Source: Candidatus Woesearchaeota archaeon (GTDB lineage Archaea > Nanobdellota > Nanobdellia > Pacearchaeales > GW2011-AR1). From it: a stretch of 64,000 bases of DNA. The stretch lies in assembly GCA_964613185.1 (NCBI GenBank), contig CAZTIP010000001.1:129814-193813 (forward strand), in the 5' to 3' direction. The position numbers and the translations under genes were made by a program. The notes beneath the pieces are model-generated. The model had not been told where the DNA came from and searched no databases. It was given only the letters and a program-made list of their open reading frames with translations. Each line of letters opens with the position of its first letter. The stretch's first letter is position 1. Below are positions 27,707 through 35,326 of this stretch, in pieces.

Positions 27707-30277
27707 ATGAAAAAAATATTTAGAAAAGCTATAACAGTATTAGGAACAGGTTTATTAATTGGTTCCACAGCAGGCATCGCAGCCGCTGCGGCATATCCTA
27801 GTCCTTTTACAAGTAACACAGCTGTTGTTTATGGTTATGATGCTGATGCAAGTGATAGTATCGCTGCAGGTAACATTGTATCTAACTTAGATGCAAATGC
27901 TGCTGGAAGTAGTACAACTACAATTACCGGAGAATCAGCAGATTTAGCTAGTGGTTCAGATCTTCTTTATTTGAATGATGAATTCAGCGAAAACATTCAA
28001 ACTTTAACAAAGAGTGACTTACCTACAGTTTTAGCAGATGAAGTTTTTACAGATAACGATGGAACTAATTACGATTTTGAACAAAAATTAGTAATTGGAA
28101 CCAGTACAAATAATGGTTTTGAATTCGGAAATTCTGACAATGATTTGGATGATCCTGCTTTAATGCTTAAATTATCTACAACTGCAACTGCAACTAATGC
28201 TATTTATGATTTAACTGCAACTTTCAATAGTGCAGTAAATTTTACTGCAAGTGATTCAGAAGGGGAAGATATAACTATCTTCGGAAGAACTTATACTGTT
28301 GCAACTGCTACAGATGATAATACCTTAGTATTGCTAGGAGGTTCTGGAAGTTCCAACATAAATGTTGGAGAAACCAAAAATATCGCTGTAGGAAGTGAAT
28401 CTTACACTGTTACTCTTGATGGTCTTAGTTCTGCTTCAACTACCCAAGCTAGTGTAACTGTTAACGGAGAAACTAAAACATTTACTGAAGGTCAGACTAA
28501 AACTCTCGCTGGATTAGATGTTTATGTTAAAACTGTTTTCAGAACTGGAGATGATGGTTCAGGATATGCCGAGGTTCAACTTGGTGCAGATAAATTAACT
28601 CTAGAGTCTGGAAATGCAGTTCAAACTGGTTCAGATACTGATGATATTGATGGAACTTTAGTTACATTCACACCATCATCAGCAACCGGCGTTCAAGCAT
28701 TAACAGAAATTAAAATTACTGTTGCTGCTGAAGACAACGATGCAAATCATTTATTAAATGGTGAATCATTTGTTGATCCAGTTTTCGGAACAGTTGTTGT
28801 AAACTTTGACAGTGTTCAAAATGGACCTACCTTTTCTGGAGAAAAAGATACTGGTAGAACAGATCTTGAAATCCAAAAAGGAGGAAATAGAGAGCTTCAT
28901 TTATCTTTAACAGATAATGCTGGAGACAGTGCTACTCTTCCATTTACATATAATACTGGTTTAAGTGATGATAATAGTAATAATATTTCCGTAGTAGAGG
29001 GAGAATCAATTTCGGATGATGGGATGTTTATCCTAAATTCAGGAAATAATCAACACTTTATGCAGATTACTAAGTTAAATTTGGATGATGGAGCAAATAG
29101 TGATGTTGCTATGAAGGATTTAATTTCCGGAGAAACTTACACATTTGATGATCATAATTTTGCTAGTGGATATAGTGCGACTATTTCAGGTCAAACTTAC
29201 ACCATTACAAATGATAGTGCTACAACAGTAACTGTTGTTTCTAGTGATTTCACCACAAGTGCAGTTACAGATGGAACAGTAGTTAGTGTGTATCCTTATC
29301 TAGAACTTGTTTCTGGAGAAGATACAAGAGTTGCGATGACTGATTATGTATTGGTTTTAGATGATATTCAAACCGGTTCTACTGGAGTGAATGTAACCTT
29401 AGATCTTCCAACAGGAAGTATTGACATAACTCAAAATGCAACAAATGATAGTCTTCAACTTGGAAGTACAGGTGTAGTAATAACTGAAAACAAGACTGTT
29501 AAGGTAGGATCTGCATATTACGACTTTGTAGTATCTGATGGTACTGGATTAGGTAATGTGGATGTCCGTATTGGTATGGATGATGGTCAAAGTAGTGCAG
29601 GAAATGCAGCTGCAGGAACTATTACAACTGCAGGTATTCTTTTTGTAGAAGATGAAGATAAATCTGAATCAACTACAACTACAAAGAATGCCTTCGTAGT
29701 AACTACAACTGACACAGGATCTTATAGTACAGTTTCTGCTCCTGTTTTCACAGGAACTTCAGACACAGAAACTTGGGACAATACAGACTTTACAGGTTGG
29801 TTGACTAACTATGGTACTTATGTATGGAGGGACACTGGAGATTCTAATCAAAACTTTGTAGGTTTATCCTATGGAAACGAGATTATGTCTGCAGATGTAA
29901 CTTTTGCGGAAGGCGAAGTTTCACCCACAGGTTCAGCAGGTATATTATCTGTAATGGATACTGACGTTGCTAGTGTTGCTGGAATGAACTTAGTTGTTGT
30001 TGGTGGTTCTGCCATCAACTCTGTTGCTGCTGAATTACTTGGTGGTGCATACGGTGGAGATATGTTTACTAGTATGACTGGTGTTTCTGCAGGAGGATTC
30101 TTAATTGAATCTTTCGCAAGAAGCGGTAAAACTGCACTTTTAGTTGCAGGATACAACGCTGCAGATACAACAAAAGCTACCACATATTTAACTAACAATA
30201 TGGATAAAGTTGATACAACTGTTGGTAACAAATATACAGGTAACACTGCTACATCAGCTACATTAACTGTTGATTAA
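27707..30277 (+). CDS. S-layer (surface layer) protein candidate, 856 aa, Cys-free
   Basis: Signal MKKIFRKAITVLGTGLLIGSTAGIAAAAA. Thr/Ser/Asp/Gly-rich with no cysteine. N-terminal YPSPF..AVVYG..ASDSIAAGNI and C-terminal NLVVVGGSAINSVAAELLGG...LLVAGYNAADT resemble methanococcal-type S-layer protein termini. Strong SD, long leader and strong terminator. Composition differs from the neighbours. Confidence 0.65.
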   Translation: MKKIFRKAITVLGTGLLIGSTAGIAAAAAYPSPFTSNTAVVYGYDADASDSIAAGNIVSNLDANAAGSSTTTITGESADLASGSDLLYLNDEFSENIQTLTKSDLPTVLADEVFTDNDGTNYDFEQKLVIGTSTNNGFEFGNSDNDLDDPALMLKLSTTATATNAIYDLTATFNSAVNFTASDSEGEDITIFGRTYTVATATDDNTLVLLGGSGSSNINVGETKNIAVGSESYTVTLDGLSSASTTQASVTVNGETKTFTEGQTKTLAGLDVYVKTVFRTGDDGSGYAEVQLGADKLTLESGNAVQTGSDTDDIDGTLVTFTPSSATGVQALTEIKITVAAEDNDANHLLNGESFVDPVFGTVVVNFDSVQNGPTFSGEKDTGRTDLEIQKGGNRELHLSLTDNAGDSATLPFTYNTGLSDDNSNNISVVEGESISDDGMFILNSGNNQHFMQITKLNLDDGANSDVAMKDLISGETYTFDDHNFASGYSATISGQTYTITNDSATTVTVVSSDFTTSAVTDGTVVSVYPYLELVSGEDTRVAMTDYVLVLDDIQTGSTGVNVTLDLPTGSIDITQNATNDSLQLGSTGVVITENKTVKVGSAYYDFVVSDGTGLGNVDVRIGMDDGQSSAGNAAAGTITTAGILFVEDEDKSESTTTTKNAFVVTTTDTGSYSTVSAPVFTGTSDTETWDNTDFTGWLTNYGTYVWRDTGDSNQNFVGLSYGNEIMSADVTFAEGEVSPTGSAGILSVMDTDVASVAGMNLVVVGGSAINSVAAELLGGAYGGDMFTSMTGVSAGGFLIESFARSGKTALLVAGYNAADTTKATTYLTNNMDKVDTTVGNKYTGNTATSATLTVD

Positions 30278-30427: not shown

Positions 30428-31006
30428 ATGTTAAGGAAAATAAAAACTCAAGAAGAAATTGCTAAAAAGAAAAAACAAACCCAAATTATCGTCGGAACAG
30501 CGATGATTTTTTTATTAGTAGTTTCAACATTAGGTTTTTCACTTTCAAGCAGAATTTCCGACGATAATACGCAAGAAATTGAACAAAACGGATTTACATT
30601 TTTCCAAGAAAATGGAAGATGGAACACATACATAGAAGGACAAAATTTTAATTTTGTATATCTTCCAGAACAAATCGCAGAAGTCTCGGTTGAAGGTTTT
30701 TACGACTTAACAAATTACGCACAAAAACCATTATACTTTGTAGGAACAAATCAAGCAAGTTCAGAAATTTTAAACACTTTGGGAAGATATGTTTCAAGAA
30801 ATCAAGAAGTCTGCCTAGAGGGGGAAGATTGCATCGGAGATTTACCTATAAAAACTTGCGAAGATAATTTAATAATCTTCAAAGAATCAAAAGATTTAGA
30901 ATCTTCAACAGATAAAGTTTACCAAGAAAATAATTGCGTATTCATAATTGGAGACTCACTAAAAAGTGCCGACGCATTCCTATACAAAGTTTTAAAAATA
31001 AATTAA
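30428..31006 (+). CDS. N-terminally anchored extracytoplasmic protein, hypothetical
   Basis: Basic N-terminus followed by IIVGTAMIFLLVVSTLGFSL helix. 5 Cys in the ectodomain. Confidence 0.45.
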   Translation: MLRKIKTQEEIAKKKKQTQIIVGTAMIFLLVVSTLGFSLSSRISDDNTQEIEQNGFTFFQENGRWNTYIEGQNFNFVYLPEQIAEVSVEGFYDLTNYAQKPLYFVGTNQASSEILNTLGRYVSRNQEVCLEGEDCIGDLPIKTCEDNLIIFKESKDLESSTDKVYQENNCVFIIGDSLKSADAFLYKVLKIN

Positions 31007-31019
31007 AATTTTAAATGTC

Positions 31020-31712
31020 ATGGTTAAAAAGAAAAAAGAAGCCAAAAAAACAGAAACGGAAAAGAAACCATCAAAAAAGATAATCAGCGAAGAGAATCAA
31101 CAATTAATTTGGTTTTTCATAATTATTGCAGTAGTTTTTGCATCTTTTTTAGGACCTTATTTTTACATTGAAGGATTAAAGAAATTTGATTTCGCAGGGA
31201 TAGAATGGGTGCAAGAAGAATACACAAACTTAGAAGTTTATCATGGAAGATTTTTTGCATTCAATGGAGCCGATGTGATTTACAATATTTATTTGAGGAA
31301 TGATCCAAGAACAAACAATGTATCTGTAGAGGGAGATTTTAATATATTTAGGTCTAAAGGGTTCATTGCTTTAGAAAGCAGTTTTGAAAATTGCAGGGGC
31401 GAAGGAGTAAGAGTAATGGCAGATTTAGCTGCGTTTTTAAGGTCAGGAGTAGGGGTAACAAATTTAGATGTTGCGACAACAAATTTAAATTTCGCTAAAG
31501 AATCTGGAAGAACTTTCGCAGATTGTTCAACTCCAAAAGATGTAACTGTTATAAAAATTCAGAAGGGAGATGGTAGTTGGATTTATCAAGATGAAGAAAA
31601 CCCTTTTTGTTACACAATTAATGTAGATACTTGCGACGACATAAAACCGGTGGAAAAATTCATGATAGAAGCAATTTCTGCATTCAAAACAAATTCCTCA
31701 AAAAGCGAATAA
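31020..31712 (+). CDS. N-terminally anchored extracytoplasmic protein, hypothetical
   Basis: Lys-rich N-terminus followed by LIWFFIIIAVVFASFLGPYFY helix. Confidence 0.45.
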   Translation: MVKKKKEAKKTETEKKPSKKIISEENQQLIWFFIIIAVVFASFLGPYFYIEGLKKFDFAGIEWVQEEYTNLEVYHGRFFAFNGADVIYNIYLRNDPRTNNVSVEGDFNIFRSKGFIALESSFENCRGEGVRVMADLAAFLRSGVGVTNLDVATTNLNFAKESGRTFADCSTPKDVTVIKIQKGDGSWIYQDEENPFCYTINVDTCDDIKPVEKFMIEAISAFKTNSSKSE

Positions 31713-32180
31713 ATGGAAAGCCAAATACTCTTCGGATTTTTATTAACCATGCTCCCAATTTTTGAACTAAGGGGAGGATTACCTTTAATTGTAGAATACA
31801 CTGTCAAAAACGGAATATCAGTTTGGCCATATTTTTTAATAGTTTTAATTTTAAACATTCTAACAATTCTAATAGTTTTTTTATTTTTAGATTTTTTTCA
31901 CGAGATATTATTAAACTTAAAAAGTTACAAAAAATTCTTTGAAAAGGTTTTGGGAAGAATACAAAAAAAGATACATAAGGTTCAGGAAACAAAATATATT
32001 GCACTAATGCTTTTAGTTGCAGTTCCACTTCCTGGAACTGGAGCATGGACGGGGGCCCTAATTGCATGGCTCCTAAAATTAAACAGGTTAAAGAGTTTCA
32101 TAGCAATCTCTGCAGGAATAATCATTGCAGGAATTTTAGTTCTTTCAGCGTCTCTTGGATTTTTTTCCGGAGTCTATTAA
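31713..32180 (+). CDS. Small multidrug-export-like membrane protein (COG2426-type)
   Basis: LPIFELRGGLPL and PLPGTGAWTGALIAWLL motifs. About 4 TM helices. Confidence 0.5.
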   Translation: MESQILFGFLLTMLPIFELRGGLPLIVEYTVKNGISVWPYFLIVLILNILTILIVFLFLDFFHEILLNLKSYKKFFEKVLGRIQKKIHKVQETKYIALMLLVAVPLPGTGAWTGALIAWLLKLNRLKSFIAISAGIIIAGILVLSASLGFFSGVY

Positions 32181-32696
32181 ACCAAACAAATATTTTAAAT
32201 CAGAATAAACAGGGATAGTTTTCAAACGAAACAAATAAACCATTAAAATCCAAATTCCAACAACAAAAATAATTGAAACAAAATTCCAAAGTAACCAATG
32301 AACTGCTTCAAAGTAATTAGTTCTAACGATTGAAACAAGGAAAACCAACCGAGACATATTAAAAAAGAAAAGCAGAACAAATGAACTAAGCAAAACAGCA
32401 AGTCTCTTTTTAAAATTTATTTCTCTCGTAGAAAAAACAAAAATAAAAATCAAATAAAAAGCAGAACCGGCAATACAGGCAGGAACTATTTCAAAAATAA
32501 TTCGTTTAAAATGAATTGAATTTCCAATGACCAAGGATTCCCCCGACAAAGAAAGAATAGAATCAAGAATAGAGATTGTAATGGGGGTAAGAAGTTTATA
32601 AAATAAATAAAGATTGCCAAGACCCAAAAGAATAATCAATAAATACCTCGAGAATATTTCAAAAATATTTTTCATCTGTTTATCCATAAAATTCAA
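32145..32696 (-). CDS. Archaeosortase/exosortase-family protein (small, 183 aa)
   Basis: Polytopic membrane protein with the family's Cys/Arg/His pattern in TM context: VPACIAGSAFYL, FFFNMSRLVFLV, AVHWLLWNF. Confidence 0.55.
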   Translation of the reverse strand: MNFMDKQMKNIFEIFSRYLLIILLGLGNLYLFYKLLTPITISILDSILSLSGESLVIGNSIHFKRIIFEIVPACIAGSAFYLIFIFVFSTREINFKKRLAVLLSSFVLLFFFNMSRLVFLVSIVRTNYFEAVHWLLWNFVSIIFVVGIWILMVYLFRLKTIPVYSDLKYLFGLIDSGKKSKRR

Positions 32697-32720
32697 ATGA
32701 TTCTTTGTTTAAAAAAGTTC

Positions 32721-34412
32721 TTAAAATTCAACAGGATTTTTTCTTCGAGAAACCTTTGCGATTAAAGTTAAAAGAATCAAGATAACTAAGGCAATTATTC
32801 CTATAATTGCATAACCTGCAATATCTCCAAGAGAACTAAAAAATCCAGGAACTTCATCAATATTTACAGAAACAGATTGTTTAAAGGATTCTCCGTCAAG
32901 AATAGAATTAATCACAAAAGTATGACGCCCACTAGCAAATGGAACAAACCTCAATGTAACTTCTTCAGCCGAATTTTCCCCAATAATCAATGAAGCTGGT
33001 TCAACACTAACAACCTCTGCCCAAGTATCTATTTCAGATAAAGAGATTGCAAAATTCCCAGTATTTCCATTATTCCTAATTAAAACTTTAACAGAAATTT
33101 CTTCTCCAACAACAGGTTCATTTTGAAGTTTAGCAGTAACTGTAGGTTCTGGGGAAGCACAATCAAGAATTTCAACCCTTATCCTATAATTTTCTCCTAA
33201 GTCATCATCGGAGTTCAAATCATAAGAGAACAAATCTAACTCATCTTCATCATTATCATAATCAAAGTGGTTTACAACTTGCAAGAAATAACTGGACTTA
33301 TCCAAATCTTCAGGCAAATTCACGAAAAAATTAGCATCCCTTCGTTTACCAGATTTAAGATTATCAATCAAGAAAGATTCATCAATTCCCAATTCAAAAC
33401 TATAAAGATTTACCAAAATTTTATCTTCCTTACTACTCCCAATATTATAAACTGGAAAACTCACCGCAATATTTTCAGCACCGCAAGAAGCAGAGATTTT
33501 TTGACCAAATAAATCACTATCCTTGATGATTACAGATTGATCATCTTCACGAATAAATTCTACAGTGTGGTAAGCGTCATCAACATCATTAAAATCATTT
33601 GAAGAAGAAACACAAGACAAAGCTTCATCATCTTCATCATAAGCTTTAATATAAATTGTATAACTCCCTTCGGCTAAATCTGCAGGAACTTCAGGAATAA
33701 CAAACAAGGCAGTATCCTCTTCATTTTCATCAAGATTCTTCAAATCAATAATTTCTTCTTCAAAATCAAAATCATTAGTAACATCATCTCCAGAACTATC
33801 TAAAATCATAATCTCAACAACAATATCTCTAACTTTCTCAGAACCATCATTTTCAATCTCAACTTCAATCTCAACTTCGTCCAAAGGTTCCCACTCATCA
33901 TCTCCTCCATTTCCTAAATTATCCACATAAAAATTCTTTATAGTTAAAGTTCCATTTTCACCTTGTTCACAAAATTCGAAAGGAGGTTGACTAACAACTA
34001 AAGTCACATTAATTTTTCCACGGGATAAAGGCCCAGAATTTAACGCACCAAAAAATTCAATTTCTCCGGTATAAGTTCCAATAGCCTGATTTGAAGGAAC
34101 TTGGATATCTAAAGAAACGTCCAACGAACTTCCACTAACTATAACAGTGGTAGAATTAATTTGGGGAACATTAATATTTGAAGAATCTAAAACATCCGAA
34201 TCACTAATTAAATCAGAAAAATTAAATGAAAGAGTATTCATTGTTGAAGAATAATTGTTCAGGATATTTAAATTCAAACTTGTTAAAGAACCTTGATCTG
34301 CAGAACCTGACAATTCAGTTGGATTAAAAATAGTATTAGCACTAACAAATCCGATTCCCATAACTAAAATTAAGAGAAATCCAACGAACCCAAATGCTTT
34401 TTTTGCTTCCAT
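32721..34412 (-). CDS. Acidic cell-surface protein with PGF-type C-terminal sorting signal (putative archaeosortase substrate)
   Basis: Signal AFGFVGFLLILVMGIGFVSA. C-terminus DEVPGFFSSLGDIAGYAIIGIIALVILILLTLIAKVSRRK is motif + TM + basic cluster. 24 nt upstream of the sortase-like gene on the same strand. Confidence 0.6.
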   Translation of the reverse strand: MEAKKAFGFVGFLLILVMGIGFVSANTIFNPTELSGSADQGSLTSLNLNILNNYSSTMNTLSFNFSDLISDSDVLDSSNINVPQINSTTVIVSGSSLDVSLDIQVPSNQAIGTYTGEIEFFGALNSGPLSRGKINVTLVVSQPPFEFCEQGENGTLTIKNFYVDNLGNGGDDEWEPLDEVEIEVEIENDGSEKVRDIVVEIMILDSSGDDVTNDFDFEEEIIDLKNLDENEEDTALFVIPEVPADLAEGSYTIYIKAYDEDDEALSCVSSSNDFNDVDDAYHTVEFIREDDQSVIIKDSDLFGQKISASCGAENIAVSFPVYNIGSSKEDKILVNLYSFELGIDESFLIDNLKSGKRRDANFFVNLPEDLDKSSYFLQVVNHFDYDNDEDELDLFSYDLNSDDDLGENYRIRVEILDCASPEPTVTAKLQNEPVVGEEISVKVLIRNNGNTGNFAISLSEIDTWAEVVSVEPASLIIGENSAEEVTLRFVPFASGRHTFVINSILDGESFKQSVSVNIDEVPGFFSSLGDIAGYAIIGIIALVILILLTLIAKVSRRKNPVEF

Positions 34413-34553: not shown

Positions 34554-34922
34554 ATGGTAAAATCACGAGAGAATTTATTTGGGGCATATGCGTTTTTAGT
34601 AGGAGTAGTTTTGGCAATAATTTTTGGATTATTTAACGAATCGCTTGAAAGGGCAGGCGGTGCATTCTATTCTACTTTGGTAGTAATAGGGCTAATAGTT
34701 GGCTTCGCGAATACCGATGATAAAGGTTCCGGAACTTTTTTAATTGCAAGTTTATCATTAGTTCTGGTAGGTGCATTAGGAAAAGACTCTCTAATATTTA
34801 TCGCACAAGGAAACTATGTAGTAACTTCATTAAGGAATATTTTAGGATCTTTAATGGTATTATTCATCCCGGCAACAATTATAGTATCGTTAAAAACAGT
34901 ATTCGCAATGGCAAAAGTATAA
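34554..34922 (+). CDS. Small integral membrane protein (about 4 TM), hypothetical
   Basis: Hydrophobic throughout (FGAYAFLVGVVLAIIFGLF ...). Confidence 0.45.
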   Translation: MVKSRENLFGAYAFLVGVVLAIIFGLFNESLERAGGAFYSTLVVIGLIVGFANTDDKGSGTFLIASLSLVLVGALGKDSLIFIAQGNYVVTSLRNILGSLMVLFIPATIIVSLKTVFAMAKV

Positions 34923-34933
34923 TCTTTTAAAAA

Positions 34934-35326
34934 TTAAAATCTTTCTAATTCTTCTCTAGAAGATTCAGTAACCTCTACAGCACCCTTTTGAATTTCAAAA
35001 ACTTTTGAAGGTGTGGCAATTACCACATTTTCTCCAAAGCCCGCAATCTTCCCTTCCAATGCTTCAACAGTTTTCTTTATTTTAGAAATTGCTCGTTTAA
35101 GTTCAATAACGTCCTTTGATTTCAAAGGTTTAATATCAATAACAGCAATAGTATAACCTTCACGAAGGGAATTCAAAATAGGATTAATATCTTCATAAAC
35201 TTTCAAAACAAAAGTTTTAACTAAAACCTTAGAATCCGATTTTTCTTGTTCTAAATCAATCTCAATAAAATCTGGAGAAACTTCATCCTCTCCGCCCATC
35301 ATTTTTTTGAACTTATCAAATACCAT
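34934..35326 (-). CDS. sepF: Cell division protein SepF (DUF552)
   Basis: 130 aa. ...VLVKTFVLKVYEDINPILNSLREGYTIAVIDIKPLKSKDVIELKRAISKIK..ALEGKIAGFGENVVIATP matches the SepF core layout. FtsZ lies 3 kb away. Confidence 0.7.
   Translation of the reverse strand: MVFDKFKKMMGGEDEVSPDFIEIDLEQEKSDSKVLVKTFVLKVYEDINPILNSLREGYTIAVIDIKPLKSKDVIELKRAISKIKKTVEALEGKIAGFGENVVIATPSKVFEIQKGAVEVTESSREELERF

Follow-up and report, generated by a model that had tools for sequence, protein, structure and literature searches.

What does a compact polytopic membrane protein do when it is encoded directly behind a large secreted protein whose C-terminus resembles a sorting signal, and what would become of the anchor that such a signal contains? 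This question arises at a locus of a tiny marine DPANN archaeon, assigned to Candidatus Woesearchaeota (assembly GCA_964613185.1, contig CAZTIP010000001.1, forward-strand positions 129,814 to 193,813; the whole 64,000-nucleotide stretch analysed here is called the window). An earlier note, made from the letters alone, had described an archaeosortase-like gene and an upstream gene for a protein with a PGF-CTERM-type tail, and had read them as a dedicated enzyme–substrate pair of implied novelty. We find that the two genes very probably encode a pacearchaeosortase and a single, dedicated, adjacent PACE-CTERM substrate, whose transmembrane (TM) anchor would be exchanged for a covalent lipid anchor. 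NCBIfam already lists both genes as a curated pair; the finding is thus a rediscovery, and a correct one.

Identity and linkage of the gene pair

The two open reading frames (ORFs) proved to be as described, with the gene for the 563-amino-acid (aa) protein upstream of that for the 183-aa protein on the same minus strand, across a gap of 24 nucleotides (nt). The motifs quoted for both proteins were checked codon by codon.

32721..34412, minus strand: PACE-CTERM substrate gene, 563 aa, ATG start, NF033506 match
32697..32720, minus strand: spacer between substrate and sortase genes, 24 nt, read from the sequence
32145..32696, minus strand: pacearchaeosortase gene, 183 aa from the TTG at 32696, NF033505 match

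Searches with NCBIfam hidden Markov models (HMMs) place both proteins. NF033505, ‘pacearchaeosortase’, gives the 183-aa protein 139.6 bits (E 9.8e-41) where 80 are required, aligning protein residues 12–172 with model positions 2–164 of 167, which is nearly the whole model. NF033506, ‘PACE-CTERM-PROT, putative S-layer protein’, gives the 563-aa protein 266.2 bits (E 6.5e-79) where 110 are required. Because the latter match covers only model positions 214–622 of 627 and leaves the N-terminal third unmatched, the N-terminal domain of this substrate differs from that of the model. With E-values of 1e-40 and 6.5e-79, neither match is due to chance, and membership of the two proteins in their families is established. 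The models therefore bear out the assignment of the small protein to the exosortase family and of its partner to the CTERM proteins, but not the implied novelty of the pair: both curated cutoffs are exceeded and NCBI records already name homologs ‘pacearchaeosortase’ and ‘putative S-layer protein’, so the pair is already curated. By sequence, the small gene encodes a pacearchaeosortase. Pacearchaeosortases are the minimal form, in DPANN archaea, of the membrane cysteine transpeptidases that make up the exosortase/archaeosortase family, and the enzymatic activity of this one is predicted from the kinship.

The residues that would carry out catalysis are present and conserved.

32475..32477, minus strand: codon of Cys74, in the context VPACIAGS
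32358..32360, minus strand: codon of Asn113, in the context FNMSRL
32349..32351, minus strand: codon of Arg116, in the context FNMSRL
32298..32300, minus strand: codon of His133, in the context AVHWLLW
32199..32213, minus strand: PVYSD motif, sortase residues 162–166, family-specific and predicted to lie on the cytoplasmic side, after the last TM helix

The Cys / Asn-x-x-Arg / His pattern, first recognized from the letters alone in a membrane context, is borne by a protein whose 150 non-redundant homologs (median length 182 aa) retain Cys74 in 149 cases and Asn113, Arg116 and His133 in every case; an alignment of 35 sequences was also made for residue conservation. An AlphaFold 2 (AF2) model of the sortase (predicted local distance difference test score, pLDDT, 84.7; predicted template-modelling score, pTM, 0.75) consists of two N-terminal helices, a three-stranded sheet (residues 54–69), three core helices and an amphipathic C-terminal helix that follows the PVYSD motif. 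Cys74, Asn113/Arg116 and His133 lie near the ends of the core helices in this model. Basic segments occur at the N-terminus (KK...R), in the loop of residues 90–98 (REINFKKR) and at the C-terminus; applying the positive-inside rule, we infer that all three catalytic positions would face the outer leaflet. The C-terminal IPVYSD motif is essentially invariant, with Pro162 kept in 149/150 homologs and Asp166 in 150/150, and Arg17 of the first helix is likewise found in 150/150. Both the IPVYSD motif and Arg17 fall outside the exosortase core signature.

The likely true start of the sortase is the ATG at 32687 (Met4; MDKQ..., 180 aa). Homolog N-termini begin with MDKQ or MNKQ, and a TATA-like sequence, TTTTTAAACAAA (32704..32715), lies in the spacer ~20 nt ahead of this ATG; for these two reasons translation probably begins at Met4. 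Judged from the TATA-like box, the sortase gene may have its own promoter, and its mRNA would probably be leaderless. Within the start region (32685..32720, minus strand), the public gene call (P0001, 176 aa) begins at Met8 and the ORF list begins at the TTG.

Linkage of the two genes was followed in the best 80 genomic loci of DPANN relatives, taken from a scan of species-representative genomes; counts of neighbours given below refer to those loci with enough flanking sequence. A sortase relative is encoded by 411 species-level genomes, nearly all labelled Pace-, Woese- or Nanoarchaeota, and a profile search of 1.84 billion representatives returned 183 clusters with E <= 1e-30, a number that rises to 359 with E <= 1e-10; almost all are 165–200 aa long. 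The sequence also recurs in seawater and marine metagenomes (DNA runs). Across the 80 loci, the substrate gene stands upstream of the sortase gene on the same strand in 77, with a gap below 120 nt in ~50 of these, and each locus holds one sortase and one substrate. The three exceptions comprise two loci cut by contig ends and one in which a substrate-like gene is divergent on the opposite strand. The strict one-to-one linkage of the genes in related genomes is thus established. Taken together, the curated HMMs, near-invariant catalytic residues in 150 homologs and 77/80 adjacency with one copy of each gene support the reading of the two proteins as a dedicated enzyme and its substrate, the central proposal of the earlier note. 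None of the three results that the note had named as speaking against it was obtained.

The substrate tail and its proposed processing

The upstream gene encodes a protein with recognizable export and sorting elements at its two ends.

34338..34412, minus strand: substrate signal peptide, MEAKKAFGFVGFLLILVMGIGFVSA, read from the sequence; helix 3–20 in the model; cleavage site putative
32724..32855, minus strand: C-terminal sorting signal, residues 520–563; codons verified, 139-tail profile, tail-only HMM
32841..32849, minus strand: PGF of the PGFF linker in the substrate tail
32811..32813, minus strand: Tyr534 at the TM entry of the substrate tail
32757..32810, minus strand: TM helix of the substrate tail, residues 535–552
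32724..32756, minus strand: basic cytoplasmic tail KVSRRKNPVEF at the substrate C-terminus

The description of this protein as acidic and secreted holds: in addition to the signal peptide, it has an ectodomain with 100 Asp and Glu versus 25 Lys and Arg in 495 residues. It matches Pfam CARDB, and its AF2 model (pLDDT 85.8) shows a signal helix and four β-sandwich Ig-like domains, which a short linker joins to a TM helix of residues 531–555. Foldseek matches of the model are to generic Ig-domain arrays only, and comparison with PDB sequences gives only weak matches.

The substrate tail reads EVPGFFSSLGDIAGY-AIIGIIALVILILLTLIA-KVSRRKNPVEF. The other anchored proteins of the window had been said to lack PGF, and a scan of window ORFs agrees: among those with a C-terminal TM helix, only the 563-aa protein has it. 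The tails of the family as a whole set this motif in a different light. A strong C-terminal TM helix is present in 139 of 141 non-redundant family tails, and in these 139 a conserved QxVSVxI strand closes the last Ig-like domain, the TM entry is marked by Asn (56%) and then by Tyr or Trp (93%), and an 18-residue TM helix leads to Arg or Lys (92%) and a V-S-R-R stop. The linker motif lies a median of 14 residues ahead of the hydrophobic core. Strict PGF occurs in 3/139 tails and PG[ILFVM] in 18/139, and the PGF of our substrate is placed ~10 residues before the TM helix rather than abutting it. When the isolated tail was compared with CTERM models, no PGF-CTERM, archaeosortase or exosortase CTERM model matched at E <= 10 except GG_III-CTERM, at 19.7 bits and under its cutoff of 22; the whole substrate gave no match to PGF-CTERM models at E <= 1. 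Thus, the PGF, TM helix and RRK that had suggested a PGF-CTERM-type tail are all there, but the tail does not belong to that type. As read from the aligned tails, the family signal consists of a loose G-h-F linker (where h is hydrophobic), Tyr/Trp where the TM helix is entered, the helix itself and a basic stop, and this architecture is established.

An HMM built from the tail only gives family members at least 20.6 bits and other C-terminally anchored proteins in the window and the loci at most 14.6 bits; no further substrate emerged when it was applied to the window and the loci. This separation of the PACE-CTERM family from other anchored proteins is in keeping with one dedicated substrate for the sortase, at least locally. 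Family tails end in Phe or Tyr in ~47% of cases, often as [EQ]F, and these endings do not track the IPVYSD motif of the sortase. We also considered docking, on the cytoplasmic side, of IPVYSD with a terminal KP[EQ]F of the substrate; strict dependence of this kind is unsupported, with ~47% of tails ending in Phe or Tyr and a sortase motif that is essentially invariant.

How might such a pair work? ArtA of Haloferax volcanii cleaves a tripartite C-terminal signal, and its products are lipid-anchored (PMC6098224; PMC9263693). We propose a related sequence of events here, in which cleavage, its position, the nucleophile and the acceptor are all modelled by homology with ArtA. The substrate would be exported via Sec by its N-terminal signal peptide and first be held in the membrane by TM helix 535–552 and the basic stop-transfer segment KVSRRK. 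The sortase, with Cys74, Asn113/Arg116 and His133 at the predicted outer-leaflet ends of three helices, would then recognize the juxtamembrane signal, namely the G-h-F linker followed by Tyr/Trp at the TM entry. Cleavage could occur near the membrane interface through a Cys74 thioacyl intermediate, which would be resolved onto an amine acceptor, most likely the headgroup of a membrane lipid, as proposed for Haloferax ArtA. In this manner, the TM anchor would be swapped for a covalent lipid anchor.

The envelope gene cluster around the pair

Synteny over the loci places the sortase pair inside a conserved envelope cluster, which in the window includes the following neighbours.

27707..30277, plus strand: 856-aa secreted protein without a membrane anchor; archaeal S-layer family PF05124 via homologs; 44/53 loci
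30428..31006, plus strand: 192-aa protein with an N-terminal anchor; kept in 62/64 loci
31020..31712, plus strand: 230-aa protein with an N-terminal anchor; kept in 66/69 loci
31713..32180, plus strand: DedA-superfamily membrane protein (PF06695), 106.6 bits; convergent with the sortase gene, 3′ ends overlapping by 36 nt
34554..34922, plus strand: polytopic membrane protein of 122 aa, its gene pointing away from that of the substrate; kept in 52/64 loci
34934..35326, minus strand: archaeal SepF homolog (PF04472), 40 bits

The slot behind the sortase is filled by a DedA-superfamily gene in 57/73 loci, with PF06695 in 39 (convergent) and VTT/DedA PF09335 in 18 (co-directional); Okawa et al. (bioRxiv 10.1101/2020.12.18.423352) place both families in the DedA superfamily. 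A second lipid-related neighbour, a gene for a PAP2 phosphatase of ~205 aa (PF01569, 73–78 bits), is found immediately ahead of the sortase gene, in the opposite orientation, in 15/80 loci (L027, L032, L036, L039, L041, L045, L050, L055, L057, L062, L066, L068, L070, L079 and L080). It stands between substrate and sortase in 14 of these, the fifteenth (L057) being cut by a contig edge. No PAP2 gene was found elsewhere in the ±6-kb flanks of the loci, and tblastn found none in the window. The linkage to DedA and PAP2 genes suggests that the pair may be connected to the supply of lipids or lipid carriers.

On the upstream side, the 122-aa membrane protein is followed by SepF, prefoldin beta, L37ae and L11, and the flank from SepF to L11 is conserved in 39–49 of the 80 loci. 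The 192-, 230- and 122-aa neighbours have no Pfam or NCBIfam match. The 192- and 230-aa anchored proteins contain Cys, and few neighbours are linked to the sortase as tightly.

The 856-aa protein bears on the role of the substrate itself. Its homologs (64–68% identity) match PF05124, ‘S-layer like family’, at 36.7–42.7 bits against a threshold of 23.9, and the window's own copy gives no direct match to PF05124. The lattice former may be either this PF05124-family protein or the PACE-CTERM protein, which NCBIfam calls a ‘putative S-layer protein’. Given its four generic Ig-like domains and the separate S-layer-family protein of the same locus, the PACE-CTERM protein is one of two candidates for the lattice.

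More broadly, and only as a tentative idea to which we give rather less than even credence, the pair could be the membrane-anchoring half of a conserved DPANN envelope module. In such a module, the lipid-anchored PACE-CTERM protein with its four Ig-like domains would be the stalk or base, the PF05124 protein encoded ~2.5 kb away would be the lattice, by analogy with SlaB/SlaA logic, and the 192- and 230-aa anchored proteins would be accessory parts. The DedA-superfamily protein and the PAP2 phosphatase, in turn, could supply or recycle a lipid or polyprenyl-phosphate acceptor. If this idea is true, the supply of the acceptor would be of particular importance to organisms that presumably take lipids from their hosts.

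Alternative readings and comparison with known systems

Several observations weigh against a pacearchaeosortase that exchanges the TM anchor of its substrate for a lipid. First, the more general models respond faintly: the superfamily signature TIGR04178 passes narrowly on the sortase (24.7 bits against a cutoff of 23), and the Pfam exosortase family PF09721 stays below its gathering threshold (18.2 against 25.7), although several sortase homologs carry precomputed PF09721 matches. Second, ArtA has Arg (R253) as its third essential residue rather than His, which makes His133 a putative equivalent. Third, the recognition motif is weakly conserved, with G in 56% and F in 58% of the 139 tails on either side of the hydrophobic position of the linker. 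Fourth, DPANN archaea often lack lipid synthesis, which makes a lipid acceptor uncertain. In addition, neither a profile search nor Foldseek (best E 2.5) found a solved structure of the sortase fold, the sortase gene was absent from all RNA runs searched, and the literature searched yielded neither the term ‘pacearchaeosortase’ nor experimental work on any member of the family; reviews treat ArtA to ArtE only.

The alternative that survives best is that the sortase processes its substrate without re-anchoring it in lipid, either releasing it by hydrolysis or transferring it to a non-lipid acceptor, which could be a glycan, an intermediate linked to polyprenyl phosphate or the S-layer protein that is encoded nearby and has no anchor. 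The acceptor is putative for every member of the family, and the conserved synteny offers an anchorless PF05124 S-layer-family protein. DedA-superfamily genes (57/73 loci) and PAP2 genes (15/80) would suit chemistry on glycans or carriers no less well than anchoring to phospholipid. Moreover, PssA and PssD homologs are needed for maturation of ArtA substrates (PMC6098224; PMC9263693), and the window has no PssA/PssD-like gene beside the pair. Nevertheless, we regard this alternative as unlikely. ArtA, the only characterized relative, yields lipid-anchored products (PMC6098224), simple release would make the conserved TM helix and basic tail, as well as a dedicated enzyme, hard to rationalize, and the other acceptors have no direct evidence in their favour.

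A much less probable alternative is that the small polytopic protein serves the surface protein in the membrane as a partner or chaperone without catalytic activity, with an adjacency that is structural or regulatory. The activity of the sortase is a prediction, and one of the 150 homologs (P0012) has Gly in place of the Cys, as such a role would allow. By contrast, conservation of Cys in 149/150 homologs and of Arg and His in 150/150 would not be expected of a scaffold, and the protein is a member of a curated enzyme family. Finally, membership of the pair in the classical ArtA/PGF-CTERM system, to which a tail reading PGF, TM helix and RRK and an enzyme of the same superfamily might seem to point, is rejected and given next to no weight, both on the family-tail counts (PGF in just 3/139, and here ~10 residues ahead of the TM helix) and on the models, with PGF-CTERM silent at E <= 10 for the tail and E <= 1 for the whole protein, no ArtA match at E <= 1 and archaeosortase D (ArtD) reaching 30.5 of the 125 bits that its cutoff demands, for an enzyme that is ~100 residues shorter than ArtA N-terminal to its catalytic Cys (Cys74 versus Cys173).

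We therefore return to a pacearchaeosortase with one adjacent PACE-CTERM substrate, and to what this member of the family adds. Standard NCBI annotation would name both genes, and the pair adds one member to a known family of several hundred clusters at 50% identity. Few members of the exosortase/archaeosortase family are as small as the sortase, which has ~180 aa and a single adjacent substrate, and a solved structure of its fold is absent from the PDB copy searched. This combination of small size, one adjacent substrate and a structurally unsolved fold recommends it as a minimal model of how the whole family achieves catalysis and of its acceptor chemistry. In addition, conserved linkage to an S-layer-family gene and to membrane proteins of lipid-carrier type leads to hypotheses, open to test, on envelope construction in DPANN archaea that scavenge lipids.

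Comparison with known systems sets these features in order. Sortase A of Gram-positive bacteria and its LPXTG substrates present a similar logic, with a C-terminal motif, a TM segment and a basic tail, cut by a transpeptidase whose Cys is assisted by Arg and His (PMC6098224). There is no homology, however: sortase A is a soluble β-barrel domain, carried on one anchor, that joins proteins to precursors of peptidoglycan, whereas the enzyme described here is polytopic and belongs to archaea without peptidoglycan.

ArtA, whose PGF-CTERM substrates in H. volcanii include the S-layer glycoprotein, is closer. Both enzymes match the superfamily signature TIGR04178, ours narrowly, and the membrane-embedded Cys and Arg are 42 residues apart here, as against 41 for C173 and R214 of ArtA, which mutagenesis proved essential (PMC9263693). 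In both systems the signal consists of a motif, a TM helix and a basic tail, and the target is a major surface protein (PMC6098224; PMC9263693). The essential residues of ArtA are Cys173, Arg214 and Arg253 (PMC9263693), the third of which contrasts with the invariant His133 of the pacearchaeosortase. ArtA is also much longer, and it acts on several substrates that are not necessarily adjacent, nine in H. volcanii and up to 52 in other ArtA-encoding genomes (PMC6098224), whereas here there is one adjacent substrate. The ArtA signal, moreover, is a strict PGF that abuts the TM helix, in contrast to the loose G-h-F and Tyr/Trp of the PACE-CTERM tail. The observation that the sortase is shorter than ArtA stands, as the numbering of the ArtA catalytic residues (173, 214 and 253; PMC9263693) indicates, but the protein is not uniquely short: the ArtD model has 150 positions. 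ArtD (TIGR04175) is the best of the other archaeosortase subfamily models, aligning sortase residues 17–154 with model positions 4–138 of 150, and is comparably small; a score of 30.5 bits, under the cutoff of 125, leaves our sortase outside this subfamily.

The closest system is the NF033505/NF033506 family itself, with which this pair shares length class, catalytic residues, the adjacent layout of one enzyme and one substrate, and the architecture of the tail. Nothing essential differs, and the PGF of this tail is a rare variant (3/139) within the family to which both genes belong.

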